Positions 2,853 to 63,653 of a DNA stretch of 64,000 nt are shown one piece after another. The stretch covers positions 156,531 to 220,530 of the forward strand of contig CANLQO010000004.1 in assembly GCA_947493335.1 (NCBI GenBank). Direction: 5' to 3'. The notes under the pieces are model-generated. The model ran no database searches, was not told the origin of the DNA, and saw nothing but the letters and a program-made list of their open reading frames with translations. Source of the DNA: an uncultured Rhodobacteraceae bacterium (GTDB lineage Bacteria; Pseudomonadota; Alphaproteobacteria; Rhodobacterales; Rhodobacteraceae). Each line of letters starts with the position of its first letter. Positions within the stretch are counted from its first letter, which is position 1. The position numbers were made by a program, and so were the translations under genes.

Positions 2853-3584
2853 TTAGATCCTTTTCTGGCCGCGCAGGGCCTTGATGACGATAGGAAGGGC
2901 CGCCAGCACACATAGGCCGACGATGGGCAACAGGATGGCGGGTTCAAAGATGATACCGAGGTTCGGCGTCTCGCCGCGGGCAAAGACCTCGCCCAGCCCA
3001 GCGCCCACGGATGTGTAGACGACGGTGCCAGGGATAATCCCGAAGAAGGTCGAGATCACAAAGCGCCGCAGCGGTACCTCAAGGAAAGACGGCACGAGGT
3101 TGGCCATAAAGAACGGCACCGCGGGCACCAGACGGATAAGGAACAGCATCGACCACTGGTTCTCATCAATGCCGTCCTTGATCTTCTTGACGACCCCTTC
3201 AGAGCCTTCCAGCTTGGCGCCAAGCTTTTCACCAAACCCCCAGCGCGCGGCAAGAAAGATTGCCGTCGCGCCAATGGTGGCTCCGGTGATGTTGAACAGC
3301 GCACCGGGGAAGGTTGCGAACAGAAAACCGCCGGTCAGCGTGGCGATTGTGGCCCCGGGAAGCGAAAACGCAACGATCACGAGATAGGCCGCAATAAATA
3401 CCAGGACAGTCAGTAAGTAGTTGTTATCCCGAAAAGATAGCAGCGCCTCGCGATTGTCGCGCAAAGCATCAAATGTCAGGTAATCACGCAGGAAGAAGGC
3501 CCCGAAAATTGCAACGATGGCAATGATAACCAGCGGCAAACGCCGCAGGATCGGGTTTTCGGCGGGGGCATCGGACATGGACAT
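2853..3584 (-). CDS. TVP38/TMEM64 (DedA-related) family membrane protein
   Basis: 243-aa multi-TM ORF. A 3-nt gap to the downstream oxidoreductase gene suggests an operon. Confidence 0.75.
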   Translation of the reverse strand: MSMSDAPAENPILRRLPLVIIAIVAIFGAFFLRDYLTFDALRDNREALLSFRDNNYLLTVLVFIAAYLVIVAFSLPGATIATLTGGFLFATFPGALFNITGATIGATAIFLAARWGFGEKLGAKLEGSEGVVKKIKDGIDENQWSMLFLIRLVPAVPFFMANLVPSFLEVPLRRFVISTFFGIIPGTVVYTSVGAGLGEVFARGETPNLGIIFEPAILLPIVGLCVLAALPIVIKALRGQKRI

Positions 3585-16629: not shown

Positions 16630-16654
16630 GGAACCCAAGGCAAAGTGCTGCGTT
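16630..16654 (+). promoter_or_regulatory. EcfG-type (general stress sigma) promoter motif, orphan, pointing into the phyR 3' end
   Basis: GGAAC (16630-16634), 16-nt spacer, CGTT (16651-16654). No + strand CDS lies downstream. Confidence 0.55.
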
Positions 16655-16660
16655 TTGTCC

Positions 16661-16726
16661 GTTCAAAGGCGCCTGTCCCCGTGCCTCGTCGATCGGCAAC
16701 GCGCCTTCCCTGACACGCGCGTTGCC
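16661..16726 (+). ncRNA. Candidate EcfG-dependent small RNA with C-rich hairpin loops (GsrN-like); ends not defined
   Basis: Downstream of the 16630 motif there is a 4-bp hairpin with loop GCCUGUCCCCGU. A 10-bp hairpin GGCAACGCGC/GCGCGUUGCC (16695-16726) follows, with loop CUUCCCUGACAC. No canonical U-tail is visible. Confidence 0.35.
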
Positions 16727-16742: not shown

Positions 16743-17561
16743 TCAGGCAAGCAGCGTCTCGGTCGAGGCAAAGAACATCGCCTGACCCACAGCAGAGCGG
16801 ACCTGCTCTTCGGCATAGGGTTTTGTGATCAAGAAGGCCGGTTCGGGCTTGGCACCCGTCAGCAGGCGCTCCGGGAAGGCGGTTATGAAGATCACCGGAC
16901 GTTCGCCCAGTTCCATCAACAGATCATTGACCGCATCAATGCCCGAAGATTTGTCGGCCAATTGAATATCCGCGAGGATCAAATCCGGCTGAGCCGCCTG
17001 TGCCAGCTTGACCGCGCCGTCGCGGGTGCGCGCGACGCCCGTGACCTCATGGCCCATTTCCGTGACGATGGATTGCAAGTCCATGGCGATGATCGGCTCA
17101 TCCTCGATAATCAGGATCCGGCCTGCCACGCTGGCGGCCATCTCAAGATGGGCGATGTCGATCAGAGCGGACACCTCTGACGCGGATTGCCCCATGATCT
17201 GGGCGATCTCTTGTGTGCTGAAGCCTTCAACCGTGCTCAGAAGCAGCGCCTCGCGGGTGTCCGGGGTCAGTTTGGCCAGATGAGCCTGCGCGGCAGCTTC
17301 GATCCCGCTGGGCGCAAGGCCGGCACTAATGGGCGCGCTTGTGGTCCAGATTGCATGCATCGCCTGAAACAGCGCCACCTTGGGCGGCAGATCGGTGCGA
17401 AAGCTGTCGCGATCGGCTAGGATCATTTCCAGCGTCGCGACCGCATAAGTGTCGCCGCTGCTTTGCGATCCTGTCAGCGCACGCGCATAGCGGCGCAGGT
17501 AAGGTAAATGAGCCGCAACCGCGGAGGAAATGTCGGCCTGTAGTGTCGATGTCATCATCAA
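16743..17561 (-). CDS. phyR: PhyR anti-anti-sigma factor (sigma-like N-domain + receiver domain)
   Basis: 272-aa ORF. The N-terminal ECF-sigma-like region (LPYLRRYARALTG, LLLSTVEGFSTQEIAQIMG) is fused to a C-terminal receiver (ILIIEDEPIIAMDL...ILADIQL). It is divergent from nepR-ecfG. Confidence 0.9.
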   Translation of the reverse strand: MMMTSTLQADISSAVAAHLPYLRRYARALTGSQSSGDTYAVATLEMILADRDSFRTDLPPKVALFQAMHAIWTTSAPISAGLAPSGIEAAAQAHLAKLTPDTREALLLSTVEGFSTQEIAQIMGQSASEVSALIDIAHLEMAASVAGRILIIEDEPIIAMDLQSIVTEMGHEVTGVARTRDGAVKLAQAAQPDLILADIQLADKSSGIDAVNDLLMELGERPVIFITAFPERLLTGAKPEPAFLITKPYAEEQVRSAVGQAMFFASTETLLA

Positions 17562-17587: not shown

Positions 17588-17612
17588 GGAACTCAACCCC
17601 TCATGAGGCGTT
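17588..17612 (+). promoter_or_regulatory. EcfG-type promoter of nepR-ecfG
   Basis: GGAAC (17588-17592), 16-nt spacer, CGTT (17609-17612), about 48 nt upstream of the nepR ATG. Confidence 0.6.
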
Positions 17613-17619
17613 TAGTTCC
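17595..17619 (-). promoter_or_regulatory. EcfG-type promoter of phyR (face-to-face with the nepR promoter)
   Basis: On the minus strand: GGAAC (rc of 17615-17619), 16-nt spacer, GGTT (rc of 17595-17598). It is part of a 32-nt near-palindrome. Confidence 0.45.
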
Positions 17620-17659
17620 TAACAATCGCATTCACCCTCATTGTGTGGCACAACATAGC

Positions 17660-17824
17660 ATGTCGAACACCGAACCCAGCAAAAAGGTCAAGGAATTGAT
17701 CGACGCCAACCTGCGCCGGGTTTTTTCGGAAGCAGAGAGTGAAGAACTGCCCGACCGGTTCCGGGTGTTGCTGGATCAGTTGAAAGAGACCCCGCCGCCG
17801 CAGGACGACGGATCAGAACAATGA
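17660..17824 (+). CDS. nepR: NepR anti-sigma factor
   Basis: Start trimmed to ATG 17660. The 54-aa product MSNTEPSKKVKELIDANLRRVFSEAESEELPDRFRVLLDQL matches the NepR pattern. Its stop overlaps the ecfG start (ATGA). Confidence 0.8.
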   Translation: MSNTEPSKKVKELIDANLRRVFSEAESEELPDRFRVLLDQLKETPPPQDDGSEQ

Positions 17825-18381
17825 CCGCAGCATTGCCCCCTGAGGAGGAGCTGGTCAGCCATCTGCCTGCCCTGCGGGCCTTTGCCATCAGCCTGACCCG
17901 CAACAAAAGCACGGCCGACGACATGGTGCAGGACACGATCGTCAAGGCCTGGACAAACATTCAGAAGTTCAAACCGGGCACGAATATGCGTGCCTGGTTG
18001 TTCACCATTCTGCGCAACAACTTTTATTCAGAGCGGCGAAAGATGCGGCGCGAAGTGGCCGACATCGACGGAGAGATCACAGCGTCACTGGCGGAAAAGC
18101 CCGCGCACGACGGTCGGTTGCAATTGCAGGACTTCAAACGGGCGTTTGACACCTTGCCGGTGGAGCAGCGCGAGACGCTTATTCTGGTCGGCGCATCGGG
18201 GTTTTCCTACGAAGAGGCAGCCGAAATGTGCGGCGTGGCCATCGGCACGATCAAAAGTCGTGCCAACCGGGGTCGCAAGCGGTTGAGTGAGTTGATGCAC
18301 ATTGGCGAAGATGGCCCTGTTGAATTAACGGACCGGCCGACCATGGCCGTTGTGGCCAGCAACAGCGGCAAATCCTTCTGA
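17821..18381 (+). CDS. ecfG: ECF sigma factor EcfG (general stress response)
   Basis: 186-aa ORF. Sigma-70 region 2 (DMVQDTIVKAWTN) and region 4 (LILVGASGFSYEEAAEMCGVAIGTIKSRANRGRKRL). It sits in a phyR/nepR context. Confidence 0.9.
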   Translation: MTAALPPEEELVSHLPALRAFAISLTRNKSTADDMVQDTIVKAWTNIQKFKPGTNMRAWLFTILRNNFYSERRKMRREVADIDGEITASLAEKPAHDGRLQLQDFKRAFDTLPVEQRETLILVGASGFSYEEAAEMCGVAIGTIKSRANRGRKRLSELMHIGEDGPVELTDRPTMAVVASNSGKSF

Positions 18382-20096
18382 TGACACAAACGCGCACGGG
18401 ATGGGATTTGCCTGTGCGGGTTATGGTGTTGCTGACTTTGGCACTGTTGCCGCTGGGATATCTGGGTGTGATCCAGACGGGGGTCCTTGCCGAAACGTCC
18501 GAGGTCCGGCTGCGCCTGTCCCTGATCGCCGCAACAGAGGCGGTGACACAGGGCGAAACCCAAATGCTGGAACGTGCCTTGGGCGCTGCAGAGTCCCTGT
18601 CGGGACCGGCCGGACAGCTGGCGGATGACCCCGCAACATGTTCGGCGGCCATGATCCGGTTTTTACGCCATCACCCGACCTATAGCTTTGCCGGTTTTTT
18701 GGAGATCAGCGGGCGGATGCGCTGTGGCACGGTCAGCGAAGATCTTGATTTCTCGCTTGATCCGGGGCTGGCGTCTTTGCAGGCCGCACCTGTCGTCGCG
18801 ATCAGGCCCGAGCCGAATTCTATCGTCGATCAGAGCCCGGTCGCGATGGTATTTGCGCCAGTGCACGGCGCCGACGACACCCTGATCGGCCATATTGTCC
18901 TGTCGATCCCTGCCAAGACCTTGGCCGGGAGCCGCGACATGGAGAATGCGCAGGCCCCGCTTGGCATGGCGATATACACGCGAGAGGGGCGCATTTTGCA
19001 GGTGCAGGGACGCGCGCCAGATATTGGCGCTTTGCAAAGTCTGGGCGACCTCTGGGCACTGGAGGCCGCGGCGACACAGGATGTGATCGACGGCGACGGC
19101 GTGCACCGGATTGCTGTGGTTCTACCGATGATCCCCGGACAGGTGCACGCAGTAGCCTTGTGGCCACGAGCAGAGGCAGAGCCAACATTGCTGGGCTTTG
19201 CGCTGCCTGCGCGCCTGTTTCCGGTGTTGATGTGGTTGGCCAGTCTGGCGGTGGCCTATCTGGCGATCCATCGTCTGGTGGTGCGGCACATCCAGCGGCT
19301 GGACGGCCAGATGGCCCAATTCGGCCGCCATCGTAAAATTTTCAAACCACAGGATGACCCGGCAATCCCCGCTGAAATCCGCGCGCTGGAGGCAACGTTT
19401 CAGGGCATGGCGCTGGATCTGATCAGCGAAGAAGCCCGGATGGAGGATGCGCTGCGGGAAAAGAACATCCTGATCAAAGAGGTCCATCATCGGGTCAAGA
19501 ATAATCTTCAACTGATCTCGTCCATCATGAACCTGCAGTTGCGGGACATCGAAAACCCCGAGACACGGACGATCCTGCGGCGGTTGCAGGACAGAGTGCG
19601 GGGATTGGCGACGGTCTACGGCTATCTCTATCAGACCGACCGGGTTGAGCGGACAAGTGCGGCGCAGCTTCTGGAGGACGTTTTCGGGCAAGTGCTTGAC
19701 CCGGACACGCTGCCGAAGATCGGCATCGAGATCGAACAGCATTTTGATGACGCTGCGCTGACCGCAGATCAGGCCGTGCCTCTGGCGCTGCTGGCCAGCG
19801 AATTGGCGGCCAATGCGCTGACAACCGTTTTGACCGCCCCGGATGAGGCGCACCGGATCGCGCTGCGGTTTGAGCATCTTCCGGGACGACGCGCGCGGCT
19901 CGCGTGTCGCAACTCATTGCCCCGTTCCGCCTCGGATCAGCCCCCTGAAGGCGAGGGCGGGCTTGGCAGCAAACTGGTGCAGGCCTTTGCCCAACAGTTG
20001 AATGCCACACCACACACCGACATTCAGGACGGGCAATTCAACGTGACAATCACCTTTGATTTGCAGGATTTCGAATTCGAAGACCGGAGCTATTGA
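18381..20096 (+). CDS. HisKA_2-type sensor histidine kinase (PhyK-like GSR kinase)
   Basis: ATG overlaps the ecfG stop (TGATG). Two TM segments flank a periplasmic domain of about 250 aa. H-box EVHHRVKNNLQLISSIMNLQ is typical of HisKA_2/HWE kinases. Confidence 0.8.
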   Translation: MTQTRTGWDLPVRVMVLLTLALLPLGYLGVIQTGVLAETSEVRLRLSLIAATEAVTQGETQMLERALGAAESLSGPAGQLADDPATCSAAMIRFLRHHPTYSFAGFLEISGRMRCGTVSEDLDFSLDPGLASLQAAPVVAIRPEPNSIVDQSPVAMVFAPVHGADDTLIGHIVLSIPAKTLAGSRDMENAQAPLGMAIYTREGRILQVQGRAPDIGALQSLGDLWALEAAATQDVIDGDGVHRIAVVLPMIPGQVHAVALWPRAEAEPTLLGFALPARLFPVLMWLASLAVAYLAIHRLVVRHIQRLDGQMAQFGRHRKIFKPQDDPAIPAEIRALEATFQGMALDLISEEARMEDALREKNILIKEVHHRVKNNLQLISSIMNLQLRDIENPETRTILRRLQDRVRGLATVYGYLYQTDRVERTSAAQLLEDVFGQVLDPDTLPKIGIEIEQHFDDAALTADQAVPLALLASELAANALTTVLTAPDEAHRIALRFEHLPGRRARLACRNSLPRSASDQPPEGEGGLGSKLVQAFAQQLNATPHTDIQDGQFNVTITFDLQDFEFEDRSY

Positions 20097-30511: not shown

Positions 30512-30647
30512 GCGGTCATCCTTCAGAGTCTTCGGCGCCAACAACGGGAGCATCGTTAGCGGTAACGCGAATGTTGCGTTCTTATTGCGCAATTCCATTC
30601 CGGTCACAACTGGCCTAAAGGCGGTAACAGGGGAATGACAGGTTGAA

Positions 30648-33047: not shown

Positions 33048-34271
33048 CTATTCAGTTCCCGATTGATACCAGGCGGCCAATACCCGGCGATCCTCTGCGG
33101 GCAGATTGGTGATATTGGCAGGCGGCATCGCATGGCTGACGGCCGCATGCAGGTAGATCTCACGCGCACGGCCCGCGACATCCGCGCGGGTCTCAAGAAA
33201 CACGCCCTTGGGCGCCCATTGCATGTTGCCCCAGACCGGCGCGCGTGCGTGGCACATGCTGCAACGGCCCCGCACAATATCATGGGCCTGCTCAAACCCT
33301 TCGGCTTGGGCAAAGCGTTCCTCATATGCGGTCAGGGCGCGGGCTTCGGACGCCTCATAGCTTTCGTGCCCCGGATAGGTCGACAGCCAGGCAATCGAGA
33401 TGAATAACAACACGGTCAGCGCCCAGGTCCAGTGCGGCTGCCCCTGCCGGGCGTGCATGGAATTGAAATAATGCCGGATCGTGACCCCCATCAGAAAGAC
33501 AAGTGCTGCGATAATCCAGGCATACTGCGTGCCAAACGCCAATGGATAGTGGTTCGACAGCATCAGGAAGATCACCGGCAAAGTGAGATAGTTGTTATGC
33601 GTCGACCGCAGTTTGGCAATCTTGCCGTACTTGGGATCAGGCGTGCGCCCGGCCTGCAGGTCGGCCACCACGACGCGCTGGTTCGGCATGATGATAAGGA
33701 ACACGTTCGCCGTCATGATCGTTGCGGTAAAGGCCCCAAGGTGCAGCAGTGCCGCACGGCCCGTGAAGATCTGATTATAGCCCCAGGACATCACAACCAG
33801 CACCACAAACAAAAGCACCATCAGCGTTGTCGGTGTTTCGCCCAACGGCGATTTGCAAAGCGCGTCGTAAATGACCCAGCCAACCGCAAGTGAGGCCGCC
33901 GAAATCGCGATGCCTTGCCAGATCGCCAGATCGGCCTTTGCCGGATCGATCAGATAAAGCTCTGCCCCGACCCAATAGACCACCGCCAGCATCGCAAAGC
34001 CCGACAGCCAGGTTGCGTAGCTTTCCCATTTGAACCAGGTCAGATGCGCTGGCATCTCTTCGGGCGCGACAAGGTATTTCTGGATATGATAAAAACCGCC
34101 GCCATGAACCTGCCATTCCTCGCCGTCTGCGGGGCCCTTGATGTCTCGGTTCAGCCCCAGATCCAGCGCGATAAAGTAGAACGATGACCCGATCCAGGCG
34201 ATGGCCGTAATGACATGGAGCCAACGCACCGCAAAAGCGATCCAGTCCCACAGAATGGCGACGTCATACAT
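33048..34271 (-). CDS. puuD: Urate hydroxylase PuuD (membrane protein with C-terminal cytochrome c domain)
   Basis: Start ATG 34271 (MYDVAILWDWIAFAVRWLHVITAIAWIGSSFYFIALD). Multi-TM body. C-terminal CSMCHA haem-binding motif. Confidence 0.85.
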   Translation of the reverse strand: MYDVAILWDWIAFAVRWLHVITAIAWIGSSFYFIALDLGLNRDIKGPADGEEWQVHGGGFYHIQKYLVAPEEMPAHLTWFKWESYATWLSGFAMLAVVYWVGAELYLIDPAKADLAIWQGIAISAASLAVGWVIYDALCKSPLGETPTTLMVLLFVVLVVMSWGYNQIFTGRAALLHLGAFTATIMTANVFLIIMPNQRVVVADLQAGRTPDPKYGKIAKLRSTHNNYLTLPVIFLMLSNHYPLAFGTQYAWIIAALVFLMGVTIRHYFNSMHARQGQPHWTWALTVLLFISIAWLSTYPGHESYEASEARALTAYEERFAQAEGFEQAHDIVRGRCSMCHARAPVWGNMQWAPKGVFLETRADVAGRAREIYLHAAVSHAMPPANITNLPAEDRRVLAAWYQSGTE

Positions 34272-34332
34272 TTTGGGTTCCCTTTCCCCATGGCTTGGCC
34301 CCATAAATTCACCACAAGCAAGGGAAGTCCAG

Positions 34333-60336: not shown

Positions 60337-61410
60337 TCATAGCAAATGGCCCGACTTCGCGGCCTTGGTCGCCAGATAGGCCTGATTGTGGGCGTTCCCA
60401 CCCACCAAAAGCGGCACGCGTTCCACCACAGTAATCCCGCAGCCTTCCATGCGTGTGATCTTGGCGGGATTGTTGGTCATCAACCTTACGGCGCCAAATC
60501 CCATCTTGCGTAAAATCTCGGCTCCAATCCGAAAATCGCGCTCATCATCCTCAAACCCCAACCGATGGTTCGCTTCCACCGTATCAAAACCTTGATCCTG
60601 AAGCGCATAGGCCCGCATCTTGTTGGTCAGACCGATCCCCCGCCCCTCTTGATTGAGATAAAGCAGCACACCCGCCCCTTCCGCTCCCATCTGCGCCAGC
60701 GCACCGTTCAATTGCGGCCCGCAATCACATTTCAAAGACCCGAGCAGATCGCCGGTGAAACAGGCCGAATGCAGTCTGGCCAGCACCGGTTTTGACCGGT
60801 CAGGCTGGCCAATCTCGACGGCGTAATGCTCTTCCCCGCCATCCTCGGGCCGGAAGATGTGCAACCGGCCCGCGTCCGACACCCGCAATGGGACCCGTGC
60901 GGAAACCACCGCATCCAGCGCTGCCATTGTGGTGTCCATCACAGCCCCGGCCTCAACCACCGTCAGCGCATGCTCTGCGGCAAATCCAGCGGGGTCCGAC
61001 AAGGGTGCAATGACGGCCGCAGGCAACAGGCGTGCTGCCTTGCAAAGCGTGATGCCCGCCCGCGCCAACTCTGCGTCACCTTCGCGCAACGACACCAAGG
61101 GGCCCTTCATCGGATTGGCAAGATCGTCCGCTGGGTCCGCAAGCGCCTGCACCCAGCCCAACCTTGCCTCAACGGGCAAGGCGATCCTTGCCACATCACC
61201 GTCATAGGCCCGGGCCTTCAGCGTCGCCGCGCGCCAATCGGTGATCGCCAGCGCCGCGCCGCCCAGCGCCAGCACATCCGTCAGCCGAGCGGCGCTAAGC
61301 GTCTCGGCCGCCAGCACCAAACCCTGTCCGGCCACCACAACCGGCACACCCATGCGCAGATCTGCCCGCGCGCGGGCCAGCCGTTCTGTTACATCGGGGG
61401 CGAATGTCAT
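60337..61410 (-). CDS. ribA: GTP cyclohydrolase II with a degenerate DHBP-synthase-like N-domain
   Basis: Start trimmed to ATG 61410. The C-half has RLHSACFTGDLLGSLKCDCGPQL and YLNQEGRGIGL (RibA). The N-half is RibB-like but lacks the acidic catalytic motif. Confidence 0.85.
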   Translation of the reverse strand: MTFAPDVTERLARARADLRMGVPVVVAGQGLVLAAETLSAARLTDVLALGGAALAITDWRAATLKARAYDGDVARIALPVEARLGWVQALADPADDLANPMKGPLVSLREGDAELARAGITLCKAARLLPAAVIAPLSDPAGFAAEHALTVVEAGAVMDTTMAALDAVVSARVPLRVSDAGRLHIFRPEDGGEEHYAVEIGQPDRSKPVLARLHSACFTGDLLGSLKCDCGPQLNGALAQMGAEGAGVLLYLNQEGRGIGLTNKMRAYALQDQGFDTVEANHRLGFEDDERDFRIGAEILRKMGFGAVRLMTNNPAKITRMEGCGITVVERVPLLVGGNAHNQAYLATKAAKSGHLL

Positions 61411-61480
61411 GGGTTTGCGCTGCCTTTCTGCGACATCACGTAGCGATCTTCGTGAGGAATTGAAACATTTGCCCGTCAAA

Positions 61481-61496
61481 TCACACGTCCGTGTGA
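61481..61496. promoter_or_regulatory. Palindrome in the ribA / response-regulator divergent region (possible operator)
   Basis: TCACACG tc CGTGTGA, 7-bp arms. Confidence 0.25.
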
Positions 61497-61567
61497 AATA
61501 TTTGCAGCACAACTTGCCAGCGCCGTGTCTGCATCACACTTCTAATCGCAAGACACCACAGGAGGCC

Positions 61568-62257
61568 ATGATGGCACAACTCAAGAAAATTCTGCTCGTC
61601 GATGATGACGAGGACCTGCGCGAGGCGCTGGGTGAACAGCTCTTGATGACTGAGGATTTCGACGTTTTCGAGGCAGGCGATGGCTCTGAGGCGATGACCA
61701 AGGCTAAGGAACAGCTTTACGATCTGATGATTTTGGACGTGGGCCTGCCCGACACCGATGGGCGCGAGCTTTGCCGCCTGATGCGCAAGCAGGGCGTCAA
61801 ATGCCCGATCGTGATGCTGACGGCGCAGGATTCGGATGCCGACACCATCTATGGACTTGATGCCGGGGCAAACGATTACGTCTCTAAGCCCTTCAAATTC
61901 CCCGTTCTTCTGGCCCGCATCCGCAGCCAACTGCGCACGCATGAGCAGTCAGAAGATGCCGTATTCCAGCTTGGGCCCTACACCTTCAAGCCCGCCCAGA
62001 AGATGCTGGTGACCGAAGAAGACAAAAAGGTTCGCCTGACCGAAAAAGAGACGAATATCCTCAAATTCCTCTACCGCGCCACCGAAGGTGTGGTGGCCCG
62101 CGACGTGCTTTTGCACGAGGTTTGGGGCTACAATGCCGGTGTCACAACCCACACACTTGAGACACACATTTACCGTCTTCGGCAGAAAATAGAACCAGAT
62201 CCGTCAAATGCCCGCCTTCTTGTGACCGAATCCGGCGGTTACCGTCTGGTGGCATAG
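61568..62257 (+). CDS. OmpR/PhoB family response regulator
   Basis: Start ATG 61568 or 61571 after CAGGAGG. Receiver ILLVDDDEDL...LMILDVGLPDTDG and a winged-helix output domain (LTEKETNILKFLY...THIYRLRQKIE). Confidence 0.9.
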   Translation: MMAQLKKILLVDDDEDLREALGEQLLMTEDFDVFEAGDGSEAMTKAKEQLYDLMILDVGLPDTDGRELCRLMRKQGVKCPIVMLTAQDSDADTIYGLDAGANDYVSKPFKFPVLLARIRSQLRTHEQSEDAVFQLGPYTFKPAQKMLVTEEDKKVRLTEKETNILKFLYRATEGVVARDVLLHEVWGYNAGVTTHTLETHIYRLRQKIEPDPSNARLLVTESGGYRLVA

Positions 62258-62266
62258 TGTGAGATT

Positions 62267-62382
62267 CCAGCGCGCGGAACATCCTCCCATGTTCGCGCGT
62301 TGGATACGTAGCCCCCGACAGAGGGTCAAATCTGTCAACCTCCCTGTTGGACTGGCCCGAGCCTCGTGCTCGGGCTTTTTTT
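62267..62382 (+). ncRNA. Candidate small RNA: two hairpins with CCUCCC loops plus an intrinsic terminator (cuckoo/CcsR-like architecture)
   Basis: Hairpin 1 is CGCGCGGAACAT [CCTCCC] ATGTTCGCGCG (62271-62299). Hairpin 2 is GTCAAC [CTCCCT] GTTGGAC (62334-62352). The terminator is GCCCGAGC ctcgt GCTCGGGC plus T7 (62355-62382). No CDS covers the interval. Confidence 0.45.
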
Positions 62383-62466
62383 CTTGTGAACGTCAGGGAA
62401 GCAGGGGTGGATTCCGCTCACCTTGTCCTGTCAAATGCCATATTCCGTACCAACAGGAGAACCACA

Positions 62467-62841
62467 TTGAAAACCGCCAAAGATTATCTTGATGACGCCA
62501 ACGCCGTCGTGACACGCATTTCCAGCGAAGAGGCCGTGGCGCGCCACGCCACCGGCAGCGGCGTCTGGATCGACGTGCGCGACAGCAGCGACATTGCCGC
62601 CTCTGGGACGATCAAAGGTGCCGAACGCGTGCCACGCGGGTTCATGGAGTTCGCAGCAGACCCGGCACTCCCTTTTCACAAACCCTTTCTGCAAAAGGAC
62701 GCCGAGATCTATCTGGTCTGCGGTGCGGGTGGTCAGGCGGCACTTGCGGGCAAGACCCTCAAGGACATGGGCTATACCAATGTCACCAATGTCGGCGGTA
62801 TCGGGGACTGGAAAGAAGCAGGTGGCCCGACAGAGGCCTGA
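62467..62841 (+). CDS. Rhodanese-like domain protein
   Basis: TTG 62467 lies 5 nt after AGGAGAA. The ORF-track TTG 62347 lies inside a terminator hairpin. Active-site loop YLVCGAGGQAA. Confidence 0.8.
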   Translation: MKTAKDYLDDANAVVTRISSEEAVARHATGSGVWIDVRDSSDIAASGTIKGAERVPRGFMEFAADPALPFHKPFLQKDAEIYLVCGAGGQAALAGKTLKDMGYTNVTNVGGIGDWKEAGGPTEA

Positions 62842-62850
62842 ACTCAAACA

Positions 62851-62880
62851 AAAGGGCCCCGCAATCGCGAGGCCCTTTCT
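62851..62880. terminator. Bidirectional terminator (rhodanese / DUF1013 gene)
   Basis: AAA GGGCCcCGC aatc GCGaGGCCC TTTCTT. Confidence 0.75.
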
Positions 62881-62897
62881 TGAGACTTAGCTCTGTA

Positions 62898-63653
62898 TCA
62901 GTCGTCGCTGCCTGAATCCTCGGGCAGGTTAAAGAAGCTGTCCGCATCGGCCACGTCGCGGGTATCTTCCTCTTCGCCGTCTTCGTCGCGCGGGTCAGAC
63001 AGGCTAAAGGTTTCCAGCCCGGCAATGGCACTTGGCATCTTGGGCTCTGGCTCCATACCCAGCGACTGTTCGGTGCTCACCAACTTGCGGCGCTCGTCAT
63101 CGGTCATGACCTCACCCTCTTTCGCCTTCTTGGCGTTGGCTTTTTGTACGGCAGCGTCCAGTTCGGACTGCTTGCACAAGCCAAGGGCCACAGGGTCGAT
63201 CGGCTCAAGATTGTTGATGTTCCAGTGCGTCCGCTCGCGGATGGCCTGAATCGTCGGTTTCGTCGTGCCCACCAGCTTGGAAATCTGGCCGTCCGACAGT
63301 TCGGGGTGGAACTTCACCAGCCAGTAGATAGAGGCCGGGCGATCCTGCCGCTTGGACAAAGGCGTGTACCGCGGACCGCGGCGCTTTTCCTCGCCAGCAG
63401 AGGCGGGATTATAAAGCAGCTTCAGCTTATGAGCCGGGTCAGCTTCGCCCTTGTCGATCTCTTCCTGAGTCAGCTGTTTGTTGGCAATCGGGTCAAACCC
63501 TTTGACGCCAGCGGCGACATCACCGTCGGCGATGCCCTGCACCTCAAGTTCGTGCAGGCCGCAGAAATCCGCGATCTGCTTGAAGGTCATCGTTGTATTG
63601 TCGCACAGCCAAACCGCAGTTGCCTTGGCCATAATTGGCAGATTGTTCGCCAT
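62898..63653 (-). CDS. DUF1013 domain protein (TrcR-type cell-cycle transcriptional regulator family)
   Basis: Start trimmed to ATG 63653 (MANNLPIMAKATAVWLCDNTTMTFKQIADFCGLHELEVQGIADG). Acidic C-terminal tail. Confidence 0.85.
   Translation of the reverse strand: MANNLPIMAKATAVWLCDNTTMTFKQIADFCGLHELEVQGIADGDVAAGVKGFDPIANKQLTQEEIDKGEADPAHKLKLLYNPASAGEEKRRGPRYTPLSKRQDRPASIYWLVKFHPELSDGQISKLVGTTKPTIQAIRERTHWNINNLEPIDPVALGLCKQSELDAAVQKANAKKAKEGEVMTDDERRKLVSTEQSLGMEPEPKMPSAIAGLETFSLSDPRDEDGEEEDTRDVADADSFFNLPEDSGSDD

Follow-up and report, generated by a model that had tools for sequence, protein, structure and literature searches.

A gene for a 228-amino-acid (aa) response regulator of the OmpR family lies at positions 61571-62257 (+) of a 64,000-nucleotide (nt) stretch of DNA from an uncultured Rhodobacteraceae bacterium (GenBank assembly GCA_947493335.1, contig CANLQO010000004.1, positions 156,531 to 220,530; hereafter, the window). 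Its domains, residues and orthologues identify it as cenR, the orthologue of ompR-1 (RSP_0847) of Rhodobacter sphaeroides. The TAG stop codon (62255-62257) is followed by a hairpin with an apical CCUCCC loop (hairpin 1, 62266-62304), a short linker, a small RNA (sRNA) unit that closes with a Rho-independent terminator, and the gene of a rhodanese-domain protein, which starts at about 62467. An earlier reading of the letters by themselves (the original prediction), which correctly ended the regulator at 62257, had singled out this noncoding DNA as a terminator-capped sRNA of the trans-acting type, with an anti-Shine-Dalgarno (anti-SD)-like C-rich element, lying 3' of a response-regulator gene. 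That description stands, and the unit is the SorX of this bacterium, an already known stress-response sRNA that lies 3' of cenR in Rhodobacteraceae.

In R. sphaeroides, the sRNA known as SorX ("singlet oxygen resistance RNA X," formerly RSs2461) is 75 nt long and depends on Hfq. Several stresses induce it; it represses potA, the gene of a spermidine transporter subunit (the uptake ATPase), protects against singlet oxygen and organic peroxides, and derives from a 116-nt precursor in the 3' untranslated region (UTR) of RSP_0847 (PMC9438474, PMC6238624, PMC8625941); its mature 5' end is made by RNase E (PMC6238624). When the whole 64-kb window was scanned with the covariance models of Rfam 15 at gathering thresholds, SorX (RF02784) was the sole family above threshold. 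The match, at 62310-62381 (+), reaches 65.5 bits (E = 1e-13), which exceeds the gathering score of 46.6 by 19 bits, and covers the model at full length (positions 1-73 of 73), which places the mature homologue at 62310-62382 (+). The original prediction had also considered a shorter RNA of about 70 nt containing just the second C-rich motif and the terminator, and this species corresponds to the known mature SorX. Judged by sequence, the unit agrees with SorX in every respect by which membership can be assessed. Two overlapping open reading frames (ORFs; 62259-62492 and 62347-62841) were discarded as mechanical, since the pattern of conservation consists of stem covariation and one invariant block and is not codon-like.

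The region 62258-62385 (128 nt), rightly taken by the original prediction to be structured and regulatory, is nonrandom: it folds better than 200 of 200 shuffled sequences (z = -4.39), and its ViennaRNA fold comprises three elements, namely, hairpin 1, a middle domain and the terminator. The structure of SorX was examined in 66 aligned homologues by counting pairs against shuffled controls and slid registers and by RNAalifold. Stem-loop 1 (62317-62336 [+]; GACAGA/UCUGUC, with loop GGGUCAAA), whose helix joins 62317-62322 to 62331-62336, is 85.6% paired, compared with at most 41% for slid registers of the whole structure, and double-sided changes occur at 6 of its 6 pairs, in 10 to 19 sequences per pair. 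When stem 1 and the terminator are taken together, 89.2% of cells are paired, versus 73.0% in shuffled controls and 28 to 42% in slid registers; they carry 146 double-sided changes, versus 49.6 in shuffles, and none of 500 shuffles reached 146. The terminator (62354-62382 [+]) is common to cenR and SorX, and the + strand downstream of the cenR stop has no other terminator-like site. Its stem (62354-62376) has 8 Watson-Crick pairs plus a terminal G-U pair around a CUCGU loop and covaries, and its U7 tail lies at 62376-62382, so the 8-bp stem and T7 tail of the original prediction were read correctly.

The middle domain is where the first description has to be revised. The second C-rich motif had been placed in the loop (CUCCCU) of a second stem, UCAAC/GUUGG (4 to 5 bp), which is 62.9% paired among the homologues and 63.0% paired after shuffling, with no covariation beyond that of the shuffles. 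The 7-bp stem that ViennaRNA prefers at minimum free energy, CCGACAG/CUGUUGG, was rejected as well (61.2% paired versus 61.0%, again with no covariation beyond shuffles). Since covariation supports stem 1 and the terminator and neither alternative stem, the second C-rich motif belongs to no hairpin loop: it is an unpaired seed flanked by the two helices. This anti-SD-like seed, ACCUCCCUGUUGGAC (62338-62352 [+]), is recognized by its invariance and by the lack of any supported sequestering pairing: CCUCCCUGUU is invariant in 66/66 homologues, with variable flanks. RNAalifold reproduces the Rfam architecture of SorX, in which a variable stem 1 is followed by the CCUCCCUGUUGG seed, unpaired, and then by the terminator. 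A further pairing, between the 5' CCC(G) of SorX and the CGGG with which loop 1 opens (62312-62325), would have the geometry of an H-type pseudoknot. At least 4 contiguous pairs can form in 37 of 60 homologues, compared with about 32 when the flanks are shuffled, which is not above composition-matched controls, and there is a single clear compensatory case (ACCGC/GCGGU in locus L034); the pseudoknot was not retained.

The linkage of SorX to cenR extends across the family. One genome per species was scanned with the regulator protein; of 597 loci found, the best 80 were kept (L-numbered below), all from Rhodobacteraceae, with CenR orthologues 84 to 95% identical to that of the window and with Yoonia and Loktanella closest. 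A search allowing up to 2 mismatches to the seed core ACCTCCCTGTTGGAC recovered it no more than 300 nt past the cenR stop in 68/80 loci, and several of the remaining 12 carry degenerate versions; SorX is called at that site at the Rfam threshold in 17/20 representative loci. The spacer between the stop codon and SorX measures anywhere from about 5 to 162 nt, depending on the lineage, and in compact loci (L005, L015 and L146) SorX begins a few nucleotides past the stop. The 3' flank of cenR is thus prone to insertion and deletion, even between close relatives. R. sphaeroides itself enters these comparisons through coordinates and description and not through the sequence of its cenR-SorX spacer: among the 120 listed of 7723 matches to CenR, none is from Cereibacter, and RSs2461 is annotated at 2,598,179-2,598,300, wholly within the RSP_0847-xthA intergenic region.

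What the window has beyond the Rfam SorX model is the hairpin between the stop codon and SorX. Hairpin 1 (62266-62304 [+]) has a 16-bp stem, made of 11 + 5 bp split by a bulged G62277 and including one G-U pair (62270/62300), and an apical CCUCCC loop at 62283-62288; its free energy is -24 to -25 kcal/mol (z = -4.05). The loop had been read correctly in the original prediction, and the stem, given there as 12/11 nt, is longer than stated. Hairpin 1 is supported by its fold and by its recurrence in relatives. In the unbiased genome set, hairpins of at least 4 bp with CCUCC or CUCCC in the loop occur in 6/69 loci (the window, L001, L002, L003, L008 and L056), compared with 0.35 in shuffles (maximum of 2). 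A metagenome scan for the pattern CCTCCC-N38-64-CCTCCCTGTTGGAC returned 63 further stretches (L081-L143), 12 of which have a cenR orthologue directly upstream. Metagenomic loci whose CenR is 92 to 98% identical to that of the window carry a long hairpin with a C-rich apical loop and different stems, and the hairpin is also present in the two closest relatives found (L144 and L145), which share 96% CenR identity and the ribA, cenR, rhodanese gene order with the window. Altogether, about 16 distinct versions of hairpin 1 are seen between cenR and SorX, with divergent stems, CCUCCC-type apical loops and z values mostly of -2 to -5. The other 51 of the 63 stretches have no cenR orthologue detected directly upstream, and a few of them end at a contig edge.

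Having no U-tract, hairpin 1 is not a terminator, and no other copy of it, such as a repetitive extragenic palindrome-like repeat would have, was found in the window. It recurs with different stems and therefore looks like one module of the cuckoo type added 5' of SorX. Hairpin 1 lies outside the Rfam SorX model and was seen only in the Yoonia/Loktanella neighborhood plus a few other loci. From these sequence comparisons, we take hairpin 1 to be a lineage-specific accessory of that neighborhood, a module resembling one cuckoo unit. It is most likely the 5' domain of a precursor of about 117 nt (62266-62382), to which it would contribute a protective structured end, a second anti-SD loop (of the cuckoo type), or both.

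The host gene is equally well anchored. The window CenR has a receiver and a winged-helix domain, and its residues D11-D13, D51 and D56 carry the very numbers reported for CenR of R. sphaeroides, where RSP_0847 is an essential, autoregulated response regulator of the cell envelope (PMC9275681). Comparison of the region upstream of cenR in 81 loci with shuffled sequences revealed three blocks, each conserved at a fixed position. A TGAAACA box (61461-61467 [+]) is found in 74/81 loci, versus 0.9 in shuffles, at a fixed position (median of -109 from the start codon). The palindrome TCACACGTCCGTGTGA (61481-61496 [+]) is a predicted autoregulatory site resembling the CenR box; a site like ACACG-N4-CGTGTGA, present in the window as CACACG-N4-CGTGTG, occurs at about -87 in 75/81 loci, versus 4.6 in shuffles. 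It resembles ACACGAGCGCGTGAG, the site given for the CenR chromatin immunoprecipitation (ChIP) peak at RSP_0847 itself (PMC9275681), and CenR would bind at 61481-61496. Finally, CTTG-N18-CACACTT (61513-61541 [+]) is a candidate RpoH (sigma-32)-type promoter for the cenR-SorX transcript, the corresponding pattern CTTG-N16-19-SNCAHNT lying at about -57 in 56/81 loci, versus 0.85 in shuffles; the conserved form of this block is CTTG-N18-CACAyyT. No sigma-70 promoter was found in 61350-62950. As far as motifs can tell, the three blocks fit the published R. sphaeroides picture of RpoHI/II-driven cotranscription and of CenR binding at its own gene.

These elements suggest how the RNA would be made. 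Transcripts starting at the conserved RpoH-type promoter (61513-61541) would continue across hairpin 1 and SorX as far as 62376-62382, where they would end; no terminator separates the cenR stop from SorX, and cenR has none of its own. The linker UACGU (62305-62309 [+]), predicted to be single stranded, would be by analogy with R. sphaeroides either an RNase E site or a transcription start, and relatives have A/U-containing linkers at the equivalent place between hairpin 1 and SorX. Cleavage of this linker by an endonuclease, RNase E by the same analogy, would release an RNA of about 73 nt in which stem-loop 1 is followed by the unpaired CCUCCCUGUUGG seed and by the U-tailed terminator hairpin, a layout typical of Hfq-binding sRNAs. 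The two predicted species resemble those of R. sphaeroides in length, which is the property compared: 62266-62382 comprises 117 nt, versus 116 nt for pre-SorX, and 62310-62382 comprises 73 nt, versus 75 nt for SorX. The seed would then pair with the ribosome-binding regions of targets, the one known from the R. sphaeroides literature being potA. An extracytoplasmic function (ECF)-type promoter overlapping hairpin 1 may, in addition, respond to general stress by initiating transcription directly at the 5' end of SorX.

We are therefore confident that the locus is best explained overall as a SorX orthologue in the cenR 3' UTR, presumably processed from the cenR transcript, with hairpin 1 as a lineage-specific accessory. 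It shares with SorX of R. sphaeroides the stem-loop 1, the single-stranded seed, the terminator, the position at the 3' end of cenR/ompR-1, the RpoH-type promoter and the CenR-like box; it differs in the downstream gene, which is xthA in R. sphaeroides and encodes the rhodanese in the window, and may also differ in hairpin 1. Several points weigh against this explanation. The 5' end, processing, Hfq dependence and targets would be as described here by extrapolation from R. sphaeroides. No PotA-type Walker-A protein was found among the proteins encoded in the window, which leaves seed pairing without a test partner. Both parts of the unit can be lost: SorX is missing 3' of cenR in L004 (Loktanella fryxellensis), as it is in L010 (an Octadecabacter metagenome-assembled genome), and hairpin 1 is absent from the equally close relatives L146 (as close as L144 and L145), L007 and L005, which makes the accessory module dispensable. 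Lastly, the ECF-type motif means that the short RNA may be a primary transcript instead of a processing product.

The last point leads to the strongest alternative, in which SorX is mainly an independent gene whose EcfG-dependent promoter, embedded in the DNA of hairpin 1, directly yields the RNA of about 73 nt. This is compatible with cotranscription and processing, and we regard it as a serious possibility, albeit one that we do not favor. The candidate, GGAAC (62276-62280)-N17-CGTT (62298-62301) on the + strand, is an exact match exactly where the original prediction had placed it, and the start it predicts (about 62308-62310) falls on SorX model position 1. The hairpin 1 stem has a sole bulge (G62277) and a sole wobble (U62300), and it is these two bases that make GGAAC and CGTT complete; among random hairpins built to the same architecture, the strict motif has a frequency of 4e-4. 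The window also encodes a complete set of general-stress regulators, phyR (16743-17561 [-]), nepR (17603-17824 [+]) and ecfG (17821-18381 [+]), followed by a sensor-kinase-like ORF (18381-20096), and GGAAC-N16-CGTT stands at 17588, directly before nepR-ecfG. Furthermore, 8 other spacers between cenR and SorX, in several genera, contain GGAAC-N15-18-NGTT (L007, L025, L038, L044, L052, L067, L075 and L080), compared with 0.32 expected from the genomic background of those loci (P ~ 2e-9); in one of them, L007 (Loktanella salsilacus), the motif lies 37 nt from SorX, versus 36 nt in the window.

Against an EcfG promoter, none of the close relatives with hairpin 1 (L001-L003, L008, L088, L097, L112, L118, L134, L140, L142, L144 and L145) has the motif, and in L144 and L145 a GGAAC sits on the opposite arm of the hairpin. 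The carriers belong to more distant lineages, in which 28 to 76 nt separate the motif from SorX. Moreover, about one strict match (1.26) is expected by chance per 64 kb, and the window has four matches to GGAAC-N16/17-CGTT; the one at 33698-33723 (+), with an N17 spacer, lies antisense within a 418-aa ORF (33048-34304 [-]), probably by chance. Another, GGAAC-N16-CGTT at 16630, points to a hairpin adjacent to phyR and converges on the phyR 3' end. The EcfG promoter put forward in the original prediction is plausible: the motif, its geometry and the presence of phyR-nepR-ecfG in the same genome hold, and similar motifs are enriched in other lineages, while its absence from the nearest relatives speaks against it.

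There is a precedent for a dedicated SorX promoter, of another type. Boxes of the FNR type (TTGAT-N4-ATCAA, at most 2 mismatches) occur in 22/69 cenR-SorX spacers, compared with 3.1 expected from the same background (P = 2e-12). In 15 of the 22 (L017 [3198-3211], L021, L024, L029, L031, L034, L036, L040, L043, L050, L053, L055, L061, L068 and L079), the box is centered 70 to 72 nt before the seed core, which is 41.5 nt before SorX position 1, the geometry of a class II promoter. In R. sphaeroides, a peak of FnrL ChIP sequencing (ChIP-seq) has been assigned to RSs2461, with the motif TTGATCTCACGCAA (PMC4263372). The window differs from these relatives, since no FNR-type box was found upstream of its SorX and it has the ECF-type motif instead. 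The enrichment of both FNR-type and ECF-type boxes indicates that SorX loci often have a private promoter whose type differs between lineages, and, to judge from these motifs, promoter type appears to switch between FNR-type, ECF-type and none recognizable. The 3' UTR sRNAs of enterobacteria include those with their own promoter (type I) and those that are processed (type II), SorX being listed among the processed ones (PMC9438474). The present comparison suggests that many SorX loci also resemble the former in having a dedicated promoter, with the difference that the candidate promoter of the window overlaps a conserved RNA hairpin.

A second alternative, which we consider unlikely, assigns to hairpin 1 a role in cis on the cenR mRNA, either as a protective 3' stem-loop after cleavage or through pairing of its loop with the cenR ribosome-binding site (AGGAGG, 61560-61565). 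An anti-SD motif in the 3' UTR of icaR in Staphylococcus aureus tunes translation by pairing with the ribosome-binding site of the same mRNA. The position of hairpin 1 directly after the stop codon and upstream of the presumed cleavage site would suit such a role, as would the retention of its structure and C-rich loop while the stems turn over, the essential and autoregulated nature of cenR in R. sphaeroides, and the complementarity of the loop CCUCC to the GGAGG of the cenR Shine-Dalgarno sequence. However, this complementarity is a generic 5-nt anti-SD match, and the module is missing from many relatives that share the cenR gene and its Shine-Dalgarno sequence.

The original prediction had assigned the unit to the cuckoo/αr14/CcsR family. 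This family is defined by 2 to 4 adjacent hairpins, each with CCUCCUCCC in its loop (PMC4615179). Membership is refuted and retains next to no probability: the unit has one C-rich hairpin, with the shorter loop CCUCCC in place of CCUCCUCCC, its second C-rich motif is single stranded and lies outside any loop, and its 3' 73 nt are a full-length SorX. The check that the original prediction had proposed, a search with the Rfam cuckoo/ar14/CcsR models, matched SorX instead; the cuckoo-type models (RF02344) were not among the 12 matches returned for 62100-62500 in a permissive rescan at E ≤ 10, and, at gathering thresholds, they matched neither the window nor any of 20 related loci. In R. sphaeroides, CcsR1 to CcsR4 stand in tandem within the 3' UTR of ccaF1, a DUF1127 gene, whereas the window has a single copy 3' of cenR. 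What can be said in favor of the assignment is that hairpin 1, taken by itself, resembles one cuckoo module in its variable stem with heavy compensatory turnover and its anti-SD C-rich apical loop, and that the homologous loops of L002 (ACCUCCUCCC) and L008 (CUCCUCCC) contain the full CCUCCUCCC motif or nearly so (full in L002). The CcsR RNAs of R. sphaeroides are, moreover, matured from a 3' UTR with the involvement of RNase E and belong to the same oxidative-stress network as SorX. This functional resemblance (anti-SD seed, oxidative-stress network and 3' UTR origin) is real but generic. Equally negligible is the notion that the unit does no more than end cenR transcripts, its structure being incidental and without a distinct sRNA function: 62354-62382 does end the cenR transcription unit, but termination requires neither the 15-nt single-stranded block, nearly invariant across genera while its flanks diverge, nor the covariation of stem 1, and the homologous RNA is an experimentally characterized regulator.

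SorY (RF02651) shares with the unit a ACCUCCCUGUUGGACU seed and a similar terminator, and the SorY model aligns to 62319-62383 with 36.8 bits, the best of the subthreshold matches in the permissive rescan. This is, however, far under the gathering score of 111, the 5' domain of SorY is absent from the window, and SorY of R. sphaeroides has its own promoter at another locus; the relation is one of a shared 3' module, not of membership. Together with this partial SorY match, the apparently different contexts of most of the 51 metagenomic stretches lacking a detected cenR suggest that the seed-plus-terminator module is common to other sRNAs or loci.

The original prediction also proposed that the unit and a candidate next to phyR, at 16695-16726, could be paralogues. 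Neither SorX nor SorY matches there at E ≤ 10, and the proposal finds no support as far as SorX is concerned. The phyR-adjacent hairpin (16697-16724, loop CUUCCCUGACAC) and hairpin 1 (62268-62302) have in common a basal stem, CA[A/G]CGCGC...GCGCGUUG, that occurs nowhere else in the window (0.02 expected). Since this pattern was defined after both sequences had been seen, it is only a lead, pointing to a possible relationship between them as single anti-SD hairpin modules. The only other C-rich-loop hairpin with a longer stem in the window is a 10-bp hairpin with the loop GCUCCC at 30536-30561 (-).

Taken alone, the locus is a matter of routine annotation: a known stress sRNA and its host cenR have been located in a marine Roseobacter-group genome, and a mis-assignment of family, from cuckoo type to SorX, has been corrected. 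The family is already known, and what is new is a further SorX member with an accessory hairpin; the unit is ordinary save for this extra upstream hairpin and the possible stress promoter inside its DNA. Beyond that, the clade-specific anti-SD hairpin and the apparent turnover of promoters upstream of SorX, and nothing else, are not routine. As a tentative synthesis, to which we give slightly less credence than to an independent SorX gene, both could be joined: SorX of Yoonia and Loktanella would be a composite RNA with two seeds, in which one cuckoo-type anti-SD hairpin has been fused 5' to the SorX core within the cenR 3' UTR, while its private promoter would have been exchanged repeatedly across the Rhodobacteraceae (an FNR-type box at -41.5, an ECF/EcfG-type promoter, or none, with processing alone), the ECF promoter of the window being housed in the two imperfections of the hairpin 1 stem. 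If this were true, SorX would have been rewired between low-oxygen, general-stress and RpoH inputs, and one 39-bp stretch would be an RNA structural module and a promoter at once.

For specialists, the comparisons yield by-products of modest interest, SorX being cited as a textbook processed 3' UTR sRNA. The FNR-type box agrees with the otherwise unexplained FnrL ChIP peak of R. sphaeroides. The occurrence of FNR-type and ECF-type boxes in many genera, together with the extra anti-SD hairpin of one clade, suggests that the inputs and the precursor of SorX evolve fast while its 15-nt seed is frozen, which makes the locus a convenient natural series on how 3' UTR sRNAs gain independent regulation.

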